A stretch of DNA of 49,442 nt from a virus (taxonomy: Duplodnaviria; Heunggongvirae; Uroviricota; Caudoviricetes). The stretch is from the IMG/VR virus record IMGVR_UViG_2537561691_000009; one strand, written 5' to 3'. Below the pieces are notes generated by a model. The model was given only the letters and a program-made list of their open reading frames with translations. It ran no database searches and was not told the DNA's origin. Each line of letters begins with the position of its first letter. Positions within the stretch are counted from its first letter, which is position 1. This document shows positions 24,863 through 29,606 of the stretch, piece after piece. Made by a program: the position numbers and the translations under genes.

Positions 24863-25052
24863 ACTGCAGGCGCTGCGTCAGGCGCGCCTTGATTTATTAA
24901 CCGGTAAACGGGTGGTGTCTGTCCAGAAAGATGGTCGCAGAATTGAATATACGGCGGCTTCTCTGGATGAGCTTAACCGGGCGATCAATGATGCGGAGTC
25001 GGTACTGGGGACAACCCGGCGTCGCCGTCGTCCGCTGGGAGTGAGGTTATGA
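24846..25052 (+). CDS. W: Head-tail joining protein W
   Basis: 68 aa, lambda gpW-like; conserved order. Confidence 0.85.
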   Translation: MVTVAELQALRQARLDLLTGKRVVSVQKDGRRIEYTAASLDELNRAINDAESVLGTTRRRRRPLGVRL

Positions 25053-26641
25053 AACGAACGCCTGTCCTGATTGATGTGAACGGCGTTCCGCTTCGTGAGA
25101 GTCTCAGCTACAACGGGGGCGGTGCAGGATTTGGCGGGCAAATGGCTGAGTGGTTGCCACCGGCGCAGAGTGCCGATGCGGCCCTGCTACCCGCGTTGCG
25201 TCTGGGGAATGCCCGGGCAGATGATCTGGTGCGCAATAACGGAATAGCGGCTAATGCGGTGGCTCTGCATAAGGATCACATTGTCGGGCATATGTTTCTG
25301 ATCAGCTACCGTCCGAACTGGCGCTGGCTGGGGATGCGGGAGACCGCAGCAAAAAGCTTTGTCGATGAGGTGGAGGCGGCCTGGTCGGAATACGCCGAAG
25401 GGATGTTTGGCGAGATCGACGTGGAAGGAAAACGCACGTTCACGGAATTTATCCGTGAAGGTGTGGGCGTTCATGCGTTTAACGGCGAAATCTTTGTGCA
25501 GCCGGTCTGGGATACGGAAACCACGCAGTTATTCCGTACGCGTTTTAAAGCCGTGAGTCCGAAACGGGTGGACACGCCTGGACACGGTATGGGGAACCGT
25601 TTTCTGCGGGCCGGTGTGGAGGTCGATCGATATGGCCGTGCCGTCGCGTACCATATTTGTGAGGACGATTTTCCGTTCTCTGGTAGTGGACGATGGGAAC
25701 GGATCCCGCGTGAACTTCCCACCGGGCGTCCGGCCATGCTGCATATTTTCGAGCCGGTGGAGGACGGGCAGACCCGTGGGGCTAATCAGTTTTACAGCGT
25801 CATGGAACGGCTGAAGATGCTCGATTACCTGCAGGCAACACAGCTTCAGTCGGCCATAGTGAAGGCGATGTATGCAGCGACGATTGAAAGTGAACTTGAT
25901 ACCGAAAAGGCCTTTGAATATATCGCCGGTGCGCCGCAGGGGCAGAAGGATAATCCGCTTATTAATATTCTGGATAAGTTCTCCACCTGGTATGACACGA
26001 ATAGCGTGACGCTGGGCGGTGTCAAAATTCCGCACCTTTTCCCCGGTGATGATCTGAAACTTCAGACCGCGCAGGATTCAGACAATGGATTTTCGGCGCT
26101 TGAACAGGCGCTGCTGCGGTATATCGCCGCCGGTCTTGGCGTTTCCTACGAACAGTTGTCCCGTGATTACTCGAAGGTCAGTTATTCAAGTGCCCGCGCA
26201 TCCGCCAATGAGTCGTGGCGCTATTTTATGGGGCGGCGAAAATTTATTGCGTCCCGGCTGGCCACGCAGATGTTTTCCTGCTGGCTGGAAGAGGCACTTC
26301 TTCGGGGGATTATTCGTCCGCCACGGGCACGTTTTGATTTTTATCAGGCGCGATCAGCCTGGTCACGGGCTGAGTGGATTGGAGCCGGAAGAATGGCCAT
26401 TGACGGGCTCAAGGAGGTTCAGGAATCAGTGATGCGCATTGAGGCCGGACTGAGCACGTATGAGAAAGAGCTGGCGCTGATGGGCGAGGATTATCAGGAC
26501 ATTTTCCGCCAGCAGGTCAGGGAATCTGCAGAGCGGGAAAAAGTCGGACTCTCACGTCCGGTGTGGATAGCGCAGGCGTATCAGCAGCAGATAGCGGAGA
26601 GTCGCAGGCCGGAAGAGGAGACAACACCACGTGAGACGTAA
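25049..26641 (+). CDS. B: Portal protein B
   Basis: 530 aa, lambda gpB-like size and position. Confidence 0.9.
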   Translation: MKRTPVLIDVNGVPLRESLSYNGGGAGFGGQMAEWLPPAQSADAALLPALRLGNARADDLVRNNGIAANAVALHKDHIVGHMFLISYRPNWRWLGMRETAAKSFVDEVEAAWSEYAEGMFGEIDVEGKRTFTEFIREGVGVHAFNGEIFVQPVWDTETTQLFRTRFKAVSPKRVDTPGHGMGNRFLRAGVEVDRYGRAVAYHICEDDFPFSGSGRWERIPRELPTGRPAMLHIFEPVEDGQTRGANQFYSVMERLKMLDYLQATQLQSAIVKAMYAATIESELDTEKAFEYIAGAPQGQKDNPLINILDKFSTWYDTNSVTLGGVKIPHLFPGDDLKLQTAQDSDNGFSALEQALLRYIAAGLGVSYEQLSRDYSKVSYSSARASANESWRYFMGRRKFIASRLATQMFSCWLEEALLRGIIRPPRARFDFYQARSAWSRAEWIGAGRMAIDGLKEVQESVMRIEAGLSTYEKELALMGEDYQDIFRQQVRESAEREKVGLSRPVWIAQAYQQQIAESRRPEEETTPRET

Positions 26642-28136
26642 TCTTTCACACATTATTGCCGCAGCATTCAATGAACCGCTGCTTCTGGAGCCCGCCTATG
26701 CGCGGGTTTTCTTTTGCGCGCTCGGGCGCGAGATGGGGGCAGCAAGTCTTTCGGTACCACAACAGCAGGTACAGCTTGATGCTCCCGGAATGCTGGCTGA
26801 AACGGACGAGTACATGGCCGGAGGTAAACGACCGGCCCGTGTTTACCGGGGGGTGAACGGTATTGCGGTACTGCCGGTGAGCGGCACGCTGGTGCACCGG
26901 CTGGGGGGGATGCGGCCATTTTCCGGAATGACTGGCTATGACGGCATTGTCGCCTGTCTTCAGCAGGCAATGGCAGATAGCCAGGTGCGGGGCATACTGC
27001 TGGACATTGACAGTCCGGGCGGGCAGGCCGCCGGCGCGTTTGACTGCGCTGACATGATTTACCGCCTCCGGCAGCAGAAGCCGGTCTGGGCACTGTGTAA
27101 TGACACGGCCTGTTCTGCGGCCATGCTGCTGGCGTCGGCCTGCTCCCGACGGCTGGTTACCCAGACATCCCGTATCGGTTCCATTGGCGTGATGATGAGC
27201 CATGTCAGCTATGCCGGTCATCTGGCGCAGGCCGGTGTGGATATCACGCTGATTTACTCAGGGGCGCACAAGGTGGATGGCAATCAGTTTGAAGCGTTGC
27301 CGGCAGAGGTTCGCCAGGACATGCAGCAGCGGATTGATGCGGCGCGCCGGATGTTTGCCGAAAAAGTGGCGATGTTTACCGGTCTGTCTGTTGATGCAGT
27401 CACGGGAACAGAGGCCGCTGTTTTTGAAGGTCAGTCCGGCATTGAGGCCGGGCTGGCGGATGAATTAATCAATGCGTCGGATGCCATCAGTGTGATGGCC
27501 ACGGCGCTGAACAGTAATGTCAGAGGAGGCACTATGCCGCAATTAACTGCAACGGAAGCCGCCGTGCAGGAGAACCAGCGAGTGATGGGGATCCTGACAT
27601 GCCAGGAAGCGAAAGGACGTGAACAGCTTGCCACGATGCTGGCAGGGCAACAGGGCATGAGCGTTGAACAGGCCCGGGCGATTCTGGCCGCGGCGGCACC
27701 GCAGCAGCCGGTGGCATCCGCGCAGAGTGAAGCCGATCGCATTATGGCGTGTGAAGAAGCGAACGGGCGTGAACAACTGGCGGCAACGCTGGCGGCGATG
27801 CCGGAGATGACGGTGGAAAAAGCCCGCCCGATCCTGGCGGCTGCACCACTGGCGGATGCCGGGCCCTCGCTTCGTGATCAGATCATGGCCCTGGATGAGG
27901 CAAAAGGGGCAGAAGCGCAGGCTGAAAAACTGGCGGCCTGCCCGGGAATGACCGTGGAGAACGCCCGGGCTGTGCTGGCTGCGGGATCAGGTAAGGCCGA
28001 ACCGGTCTCTGCATCCACAACAGCCCTGTTTGAACATTTCATGGCGAATCATTCACCGGCAGCGGTGCGGGGGGGCGTGTCACAGACGTCAGCAGACGGT
28101 GATGCGGACGTGAAAATGCTCATGGCCATGCCATGA
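26631..28136 (+). CDS. C: Head protease/scaffold C (S49 peptidase) with Nu3-like scaffold region containing three tandem repeats
   Basis: 501 aa; S49-type region; C-terminal repeats (EAKGREQLA...MSVEQARAILAAA pattern, three copies). Confidence 0.88.
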   Translation: MRRNLSHIIAAAFNEPLLLEPAYARVFFCALGREMGAASLSVPQQQVQLDAPGMLAETDEYMAGGKRPARVYRGVNGIAVLPVSGTLVHRLGGMRPFSGMTGYDGIVACLQQAMADSQVRGILLDIDSPGGQAAGAFDCADMIYRLRQQKPVWALCNDTACSAAMLLASACSRRLVTQTSRIGSIGVMMSHVSYAGHLAQAGVDITLIYSGAHKVDGNQFEALPAEVRQDMQQRIDAARRMFAEKVAMFTGLSVDAVTGTEAAVFEGQSGIEAGLADELINASDAISVMATALNSNVRGGTMPQLTATEAAVQENQRVMGILTCQEAKGREQLATMLAGQQGMSVEQARAILAAAAPQQPVASAQSEADRIMACEEANGREQLAATLAAMPEMTVEKARPILAAAPLADAGPSLRDQIMALDEAKGAEAQAEKLAACPGMTVENARAVLAAGSGKAEPVSASTTALFEHFMANHSPAAVRGGVSQTSADGDADVKMLMAMP

Positions 28137-28172: not shown

Positions 28173-28520
28173 ATGGTGACGAAAACCATCACTGAACAGC
28201 GTGCGGAAGTACGTATTTTTGCCGGTAATGATCCGGCTCATACCGCCACAGGCAGCAGCGGGATTTCTTCTGCAACACCGGCTCTGACGCCCCTGATGCT
28301 GGATGAAGCCACCGGGAAACTGGTGGTCTGGGATGGACAGAAAGCCGGTAGTGCGGTTGGCATACTGGTACTGCCGCTTGAAGGCACAGAGACGGTGCTG
28401 ACCTATTACAAGTCGGGGACCTTTGCGACGGAGGCAATCCGCTGGCCTGACAGTGTGGATGAACACAAAAAGGCAAATGCCTTTGCCGGCACAGCCCTGA
28501 GTCACGCGGCTCTGCCGTAA
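28173..28520 (+). CDS. D: Head decoration protein D
   Basis: 115 aa, lambda gpD-like (DPAHTAT..., TFAGTA...). Confidence 0.9.
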   Translation: MVTKTITEQRAEVRIFAGNDPAHTATGSSGISSATPALTPLMLDEATGKLVVWDGQKAGSAVGILVLPLEGTETVLTYYKSGTFATEAIRWPDSVDEHKKANAFAGTALSHAALP

Positions 28521-28577: not shown

Positions 28578-29606
28578 ATGGGATTGTTTACGACCCGCCA
28601 GTTACTCGGTTATACCGAACAAAAAGTGAAATTCCGTGCGCTGTTTCTGGAGCTGTTTTTCCGCCGTACGGTGAATTTCCACACCGAAGAGGTGATGCTG
28701 GACAAAATTACCGGAAAAACGCCGGTGGCGGCCTATGTCTCCCCGATCGTTGAAGGAAAAGTGCTTCGCCATCGCGGTGGTGAAACCCGCGTGTTACGTC
28801 CGGGCTACGTCAAGCCGAAACACGAATTTAATTACCAGCAGGCGGTTGAGCGCCTTCCTGGTGAAGATCCGGCTCAGCTGAACGACCCGGCCTACCGTCG
28901 TCTGCGTATCATTACCGATAACCTCAAACAGGAAGAGCACGCCATTGTCCAGGTGGAAGAAATGCAGGCGGTGAATGCCGTGCTGTATGGCAAATACACC
29001 ATGGAAGGGGATCAGTTTGATACTGTCGAGGTGGATTTCGGGCGCTCTGAAGGAAATAACATTGAGCAGGCTGACGGTAAAAAATGGTCTGAGCAGGACC
29101 GTGATACGTTTGATCCGACGCATGATATTGACCTCTACTGCGATCAGGCCAGCGGCCTTGTGAATATCGCCATTATGGACGGTACGGTCTGGCGTCTGCT
29201 GAATGGCTTTAAGCTGTTCCGCGAAAAACTGGATACCCGTCGCGGCTCAAATTCACAACTCGAAACGGCAGTGAAAGATCTGGGCGCAGTGGTGTCCTTC
29301 AAGGGGTATTACGGCGATCTGGCCATTGTGGTGGCGAAAACGTCTTATGTGGCAGAGGACGGTACCGAAAAACGTTATCTGCCGGAGGGCATGCTGGTGT
29401 TGGGGAATACGGCGGCAGAGGGGATTCGTTGCTATGGTGCCATTAAGGATGCACAGGCGTTGTCTGAAGGAGTGGTGGCTTCTTCCCGTTACCCGAAACA
29501 CTGGCTGACCGTGGGCGATCCGTCCTGTGAATTCACCATGACGCAGTCCGCTCCGCTGATGGTGCTGCCGGATCCGGATGAGTTTGTGGTGGTACAGGTG
29601 AAATAA
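28578..29606 (+). CDS. E: Major capsid protein E
   Basis: 342 aa; size and position of lambda gpE. Confidence 0.9.
   Translation: MGLFTTRQLLGYTEQKVKFRALFLELFFRRTVNFHTEEVMLDKITGKTPVAAYVSPIVEGKVLRHRGGETRVLRPGYVKPKHEFNYQQAVERLPGEDPAQLNDPAYRRLRIITDNLKQEEHAIVQVEEMQAVNAVLYGKYTMEGDQFDTVEVDFGRSEGNNIEQADGKKWSEQDRDTFDPTHDIDLYCDQASGLVNIAIMDGTVWRLLNGFKLFREKLDTRRGSNSQLETAVKDLGAVVSFKGYYGDLAIVVAKTSYVAEDGTEKRYLPEGMLVLGNTAAEGIRCYGAIKDAQALSEGVVASSRYPKHWLTVGDPSCEFTMTQSAPLMVLPDPDEFVVVQVK

Follow-up and report, generated by a model that had tools for sequence, protein, structure and literature searches.

Three diverged copies of a scaffold module in the head protease/scaffold gene of a phage 21-type lambdoid phage or prophage

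The closest described relatives of the gene analysed here are gene C of phage lambda and gene 5 of phage 21, in which the scaffold domain is the common C-terminus of an S49 head protease (gpC or gp5) and of a nested scaffold protein (Nu3 or gp6). In the GenBank record of the phage 21 head operon (M81255), gene 6, the Nu3 analogue, carries three repeat_region features named 'Tri1 box', 'Tri box' and 'Tri3 box'; as their function is noted there as 'unknown; putative', the annotation offers no mechanism. This annotation dates to the early 1990s, and the original paper on the phage 21 head operon is that of Smith and Feiss in 1993 (Gene 126:1). The same nested 'scaffolding protein' is annotated in the newer phage 21 record (OL657228). 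The DNA studied here, called the window, is the whole 49,442-nucleotide (nt) stretch of the IMG/VR virus record IMGVR_UViG_2537561691_000009 (Caudoviricetes), which is a lambdoid phage or prophage with head genes of the phage 21 type. Its gene C / gene 5 homologue is an open reading frame (ORF) of 501 amino acids (aa), and the product combines, as judged from its sequence, an S49 head-maturation protease with a scaffold domain. The scaffold part contains three consecutive repeat units, which are likely to have arisen by an ancient in-frame tandem triplication of a module of the lambda-family scaffold, proposed here as a contact element of the scaffold. The triplication is not new, as the phage 21 record already marks it with its Tri boxes.

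The three units could be placed on cores of 36 aa (aa 321-356, 371-406, and 418-453) with core-to-core spacings of 50 and 47 aa. An earlier interpretation made from the letters of the window (the sequence-only reading) had described three consecutive units of about 45 aa, which is borne out by this spacing and by alignment scores far above those of shuffled sequences, and its repeat motif agrees with the unit consensus, I[LM]xCxEAKGRExLAxxLAxxPGMTVExARxILAAA. The C-terminal third of the protein, in which that reading had placed the repeats, is not exactly their extent; the units span aa 314-455 and thus cover approximately the final 38% of the sequence except for a tail of 46 aa. BLASTp comparison of the 501-aa protein against itself returned the diagonal only, and Smith-Waterman alignment of the units with shuffled controls was used instead. 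The scores between units were 105, 86, and 97, whereas composition-preserving shuffles scored 25 ± 4.7 and none of 2000 reached the observed values (z = 13-17). In 16 of the 45 unit columns, the three units have one and the same residue, in register.

At the DNA level, Tandem Repeats Finder detected no array with a period of approximately 140-150 nt and reported only two trivial short repeats. The program is blind to the units because they share only 59-68% of their nucleotides, and the unit cores, at this identity, fall short of the approximately 70% likeness expected of a DNA-level tandem repeat. The longest exact words common to the units are 8-10 nt. Identity between units amounts to 69-83% at codon positions 1 and 2 and to approximately 40% at position 3. 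This codon-position pattern marks the copies as old and as maintained by protein-level selection, and it demonstrates three diverged copies which, as judged from their nucleotides, are under purifying selection.

The phage 21 gp5 protein is 97% identical to the 501-aa protein over all residues without gaps, and collinear, gap-free alignment with M81255 revealed three in-frame copies of the module at the annotated Tri-box positions. The two phages also share the internal ribosome-binding site (RBS) and ATG, and the gene order portal, protease/scaffold, shp decoration, and major capsid. The proteins differ by 15 amino acid substitutions; the scaffold part evolves several times faster than the protease part, because 10 of the 15 lie in the last 190 residues.

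The predicted nested scaffold of 200 aa begins at residue 302, after the protease domain, and consists of a 12-aa leader, the three units, and the 46-aa tail. A purine-rich RBS followed by ATG was found at the same place in the E. coli, Trabulsiella, and Providencia homologues while the local amino acids differ, and this conservation supports a real internal start at the predicted site. Many database proteins, such as P0001, P0003, and P0037-P0040, have been called from the same methionine in independent gene calls.

Comparison with lambda revealed a homologous protease (53% identity over aa 3-372) with the same nested-gene logic, the conserved module ILNCEEAHGREEQARVLAETPGMTVKTARRILAAAP, and the same type of C-terminal tail. 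The sequence-only reading of the protein as a lambda C homologue with repeats in its Nu3-like part could thus be confirmed by the Pfam S49 domain, this identity, the PHROG matches described below, and the phage 21 gene 6 annotation. Lambda differs in having one module, which follows a low-complexity linker of approximately 53 aa, and unit 1 is, on its N-terminal side, the positional counterpart of this single lambda unit. The Nu3 start is also different, as it lies within the protease domain at C residue 239 (L003:833). In general, the linker from the protease to the first unit is 14-17 aa in three-unit proteins, compared to a median of 49 aa among 50 non-redundant proteins with one unit, and the tail after the last unit is 37-60 aa in most homologues whatever the unit number. 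The statement that the repeats expand the protein to 501 aa therefore holds in part: the protein is longer than lambda C (439 aa), but the net gain is 62 aa and not two full units, because the linker of the three-unit form is much shorter. The nested product is nearly equal in length to that of lambda (200 aa here, 201 aa in Nu3), and it is no longer than Nu3 because the internal start lies further downstream. The scaffold lengths are thus nearly equal despite three modules versus one and a shifted start. Together with the shortening of the linker, this could be a sign that the length of the scaffold is constrained.

The distribution of the unit was evaluated by searching a 45-position unit profile against 1.84 billion representative proteins, by species-level genome contigs, and by named phages, and the unit counts were taken from these three sources. 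A homologue search with the 200-aa scaffold gave mostly fragments, in which variants were visible, and it was poorly suited to counting. The profile matched 1952 proteins at E<=1e-3, nearly all of them phage protease/scaffold-like; the matches either were 400-550 aa long and carried the unit close to their C-terminus, or were fragments and short proteins of Nu3 size. In the best 144 of these 1952 matches, one unit was found in 134, two in 8, and three in 2; multi-copy proteins rank higher in such a search, yet one-unit proteins dominate. When one genome per species was considered, 75 of 80 loci had one unit and four had three units (E. coli, Shigella, Trabulsiella, and Providencia), while the remaining locus was a short partial sequence (726 nt) with no unit detected. 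Among named phages, one unit is present in lambda, mEp237, the Chi-like phage FSL SP-030, and Marinobacter phage PS3, and three are present in phage 21 and Gifsy-1. One unit is thus the common state and probably the ancestral one. The variation in copy number among relatives, for which the sequence-only reading had proposed an alignment, is real, ranging from one to four units with one in lambda, and a unit number identical in all lambda-like phages is refuted.

All of the 80 closest viral contigs carry three units, and their gene copies are 97-100% identical. The 603-bp (base pair) scaffold segment was found in 1870 of 5426 complete E. coli genomes, at least 80% of its length being present in 1865, and among the E. 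coli matches listed nearly all span the full 603 bp. Each unit of the window most resembles the unit that has the same number in proteins from Salmonella, Trabulsiella, and Providencia, and this positional orthology indicates that the triplication predates the divergence of these prophage lineages. Gifsy-1 of Salmonella (STM2605.Gifsy1, 498 aa) has three units at the same positions and the same context of the internal methionine (GGTMPELSA); it differs in having approximately 60% identity in the scaffold part, where the related fragments from Salmonella share 58-65% identity with the query, and in a third unit that keeps GRE. As far as can be read from these sequences, the three-unit form is old and stable and belongs to one enterobacterial lineage, with two and four units as occasional forms.

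Several such variants could be observed. The rare two-unit forms in E. coli prophages (P0013, P0019, and P0022) resemble deletions or hybrids of unit 1 and unit 2, and one 382-aa form is without the linker and unit 1 (P0103). A four-unit form with nearly identical units 2-4 occurs in a different E. coli lineage (P0025), and separate duplications are present in distant relatives (P0091 and P0145). In one E. coli genome (H126, NZ_CP145703.1, 5073856-5074401), the scaffold segment aligned in two pieces covering 546 bp compared to 603 bp, which suggests an in-frame 57-bp deletion variant. In the lineage of phage 21 and E. coli, unit 3 has GAE (aa 426-428, positions 27906-27914) where the EAKGRE motif otherwise has a near-invariant GRE, and Q in place of the L that follows, whereas the orthologous third units of Salmonella, Trabulsiella, and Providencia keep GRE; on this comparison, the role of the third copy may be relaxed or changed in that lineage. 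A gene C nearly identical to that of lambda was also found on short or very low-coverage contigs (L093-L101, L105, L106, L112-L118, L135, L137, L155, and L156) in assemblies labelled as unrelated organisms, among them Neobacillus, Kitasatospora, Shewanella, Oceanobacillus, Leeuwenhoekiella, an Akkermansia metagenome-assembled genome, Enterococcus, and Veillonella; these look like lambda DNA contamination and not prophages.

Structure prediction of a single unit by AlphaFold gave three helices at unit positions 2-9, 18-25, and 32-41, with a predicted local distance difference test score (pLDDT) of 85.6 and a predicted template modelling score (pTM) of 0.61. The predicted order is a short helix, the EAKG loop, a helix, the PGMT turn, and a helix. 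The model of the 200-aa scaffold contains the same three helices in each unit (pLDDT approximately 70-80; pTM 0.26), joined by low-confidence linkers and without a fixed mutual arrangement of the units, and two low-confidence helices are placed in the C-terminal tail. Each unit is thus modelled as an independent small three-helix module on flexible linkers. A profile search of PDB sequences gave chance-level matches only and no scaffold protein, and Foldseek comparison of the 200-aa and 45-aa models against PDB gave no match at E<=0.001, very short peptides being hard to match by this method. A functional analogy, and only that, can be drawn with scaffolds of the P22 gp8 type, in which a small C-terminal helical hairpin sits on an otherwise extended flexible scaffold; one report describes this helix-turn-helix domain as essential for coat binding (bioRxiv 10.1101/2022.12.13.520362). 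No sequence or fold relationship with P22 was detectable by the PDB profile search and Foldseek, and a distant analogy is possible. P22 also differs in having no fused protease, and the module here is predicted to have three helices and is present three times.

Across the family, no other element of the scaffold region is as conserved as the module, even in very distant homologues. It would serve as the contact element through which the scaffold works, with the major capsid protein and/or a further scaffold or portal subunit as its partner, and the protease, which has the same C-terminus, would also be carried into the prohead by it. The scaffold of the phage 21 / Gifsy lineage would then be a trivalent, beads-on-a-string chain, compared to the one module of lambda on a long disordered linker, at a similar overall length. 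For lambda, interactions of Nu3 with E, Nu3, C, and B are listed but unmapped (PMC3224144), and the literature search found no paper on what the scaffold module binds. We would go further only tentatively, to a reading in which the 36-45-aa module is the universal interface of S49-protease/Nu3 scaffolds, with an evolvable valency of one to four that is traded against linker length; the phage 21 / Gifsy lineage would in that case use a trivalent scaffold for the same T=7 head, each chain touching several capsid subunits, and its scaffold:capsid stoichiometry would consequently differ from that of lambda. The suggestion of the sequence-only reading that the repeats may tune scaffold stoichiometry is neither favoured nor disfavoured by the present results.

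Some points weigh against the module as a contact element present in three working copies. Unit 3 of this lineage is without the near-invariant arginine of GRE, and the copies may therefore differ in function. As neither the sequence search nor the fold search gave a solved relative, the contact role is one that we infer. The conserved C-terminal tail, and not the module, could be the capsid-binding element by analogy with several other scaffolds. Lambda Nu3 is also reportedly largely intrinsically disordered in solution (work attributed to Medina and co-workers in 2011), and this sits uneasily with a stably folded module.

Among the other explanations, the one with the most substance is that the modules serve scaffold self-association, portal recruitment, or recognition and cleavage by the protease for scaffold removal, while the tail binds the capsid. 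The extreme C-terminus binds the coat protein in P22 and herpesvirus scaffolds, and the length and motifs of the tail are conserved here regardless of the unit number, which makes the tail a serious alternative as the capsid-binding element. Lambda Nu3 is listed as multimer-forming, as needed for portal incorporation, and as degraded by C (PMC3224144). The module nevertheless surpasses the rest of the scaffold in conservation, which would fit a key interface, although conservation leaves unsaid which interface this is; we regard this explanation as possible, with the balance of probability against it. A recent, unstable tandem array of the contingency type, with a copy number shifting by slippage or unequal crossing-over, would account for the two-unit proteins P0013, P0019, and P0022 and the four-unit protein P0025, as these demonstrate that expansion and contraction do occur. 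It is very unlikely for the window, where the units have diverged to 59-68% nucleotide identity with no exact word beyond 8-10 nt and where unit orthology holds by position across genera; the three units in all 80 closest viral contigs and the constant segment length in E. coli genomes (at least 80% of the segment in 1865 of 1870 carriers) speak against it as well. Frequent copy-number differences between closely related prophages would favour such an array, and the surveys made here gave the opposite picture. The recent-array explanation was rejected on unit divergence, positional orthology, and this constant length.

The two remaining explanations deny that the units are homologous protein repeats, and both are extremely improbable. 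A by-product of an alanine-rich, low-complexity disordered region would be in keeping with a scaffold region rich in A, E, Q, and G and with the lack of a DNA repeat of unit period in the Tandem Repeats Finder output. Shuffles of the same composition, however, never came near the unit scores (0/2000, z = 13-17), and the 16 in-register identical columns, the 1952 profile matches, and the unit fold modelled at pLDDT 85.6 are likewise at odds with an artefact of composition, which was rejected on the shuffle test and the profile search. The periodicity could also reflect DNA-level signals, such as binding sites of a regulatory protein or an opposite-strand gene. Long antisense ORFs do occur in the repeat region, and OL657228 annotates two 'CII binding sites' (TTGYN6TTGY) on the minus strand, corresponding to window positions 27539-27552 and 27773-27786. 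This pattern occurs 6 times in the window, compared to 11.5 ± 3.8 expected by chance, and the annotated CII sites inside the scaffold gene are probably chance matches; the conservation of codon positions 1 and 2 and not of position 3 is that of selection on the plus-strand protein. DNA-level signals were rejected on the chance-level CII pattern and the codon-position pattern. An ancient triplication of a protein module, kept by selection, thus stays the preferred explanation of the three units.

The features of the locus are collected in Table 1. The 501-aa protein matches the PHROG head maturation protease family phrog_53 from end to end (E=2e-228), and PHROG head scaffolding and capsid assembly families match it in at least three stretches. 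As in lambda gpC/Nu3-type proteins, an S49 domain is followed by the EAKGRE...GMTVE.A..ILAAAP module, here three times, and by the C-terminal tail, which could be aligned with the tail behind the single lambda unit and with those of other homologues. In an alignment of diverse homologues, Ser162 and Lys214 occupy nearly invariant columns (at least 90% conserved), and we take them, as in other S49 peptidases, to be the putative catalytic Ser/Lys dyad. The first 11 nt of the ORF are shared with the end of the portal gene. The flanking ORFs occupy the places of the phage 21 portal, shp decoration, and major capsid genes and were assigned by position, which puts the protease/scaffold gene between portal and decoration/major capsid genes as in a head operon. 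Two antisense ORFs inside gene C, 26646-27221 (minus strand, 191 aa) and 27431-27742 (minus strand, 103 aa), are probably spurious products of GC-rich coding sequence.

Table 1. Coordinates of the gene C / gene 5 homologue, its parts, and the flanking ORFs in the window, with the corresponding Tri-box positions in M81255
Feature	Window position	Strand	M81255 position	Remarks
Gene C / phage 21 gene 5 homologue	26631-28136	+		GTG start, 501 aa (ORF list)
S49 peptidase domain (aa 146-293)	27066..27509	+		Pfam PF01343, E=1.5e-34
AGGAGG ribosome-binding site	27524..27529	+		4 nt upstream of ATG; putative RBS of gene 6 in M81255 and OL657228
Nested in-frame ORF, phage 21 gene 6 homologue / lambda Nu3 analogue	27534..28136	+		200 aa
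Repeat unit 1 (aa 314-358)	27570..27704, core 27591-27698	+		'Tri1 box' counterpart
Tri1 box	27601-27704		2471-2574	
Repeat unit 2 (aa 364-408)	27720..27854, core 27741-27848	+		'Tri box' counterpart
Tri box	27741-27851		2611-2721	
Repeat unit 3 (aa 411-455)	27861..27995, core 27882-27989	+		'Tri3 box' counterpart
Tri3 box	27882-27995		2752-2865	
C-terminal tail (aa 456-501, 46 aa)	27996..28133	+		Conserved F..FM..SP and LM..P motifs
Flanking ORF, place of phage 21 portal (gene 4)	25049-26641			ORF list
Flanking ORF, place of phage 21 shp decoration	28173-28520			ORF list
Flanking ORF, place of phage 21 major capsid (gene 7)	28578-29606			ORF list

The triplication itself adds little to what is known, as it was annotated earlier and approximately one-third of complete E. 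coli genomes have it in prophages. The comparison contributes something modest, in the form of copy-number counts and of a trade-off of linker length against start site: the extra modules are accompanied by a shorter linker and a shifted internal start, and the scaffold stays at approximately 200 aa. How lambda Nu3 works is so far only poorly understood, and phage 21 compared with lambda is a natural experiment on the binding partner of the module and on the effect of its valency.

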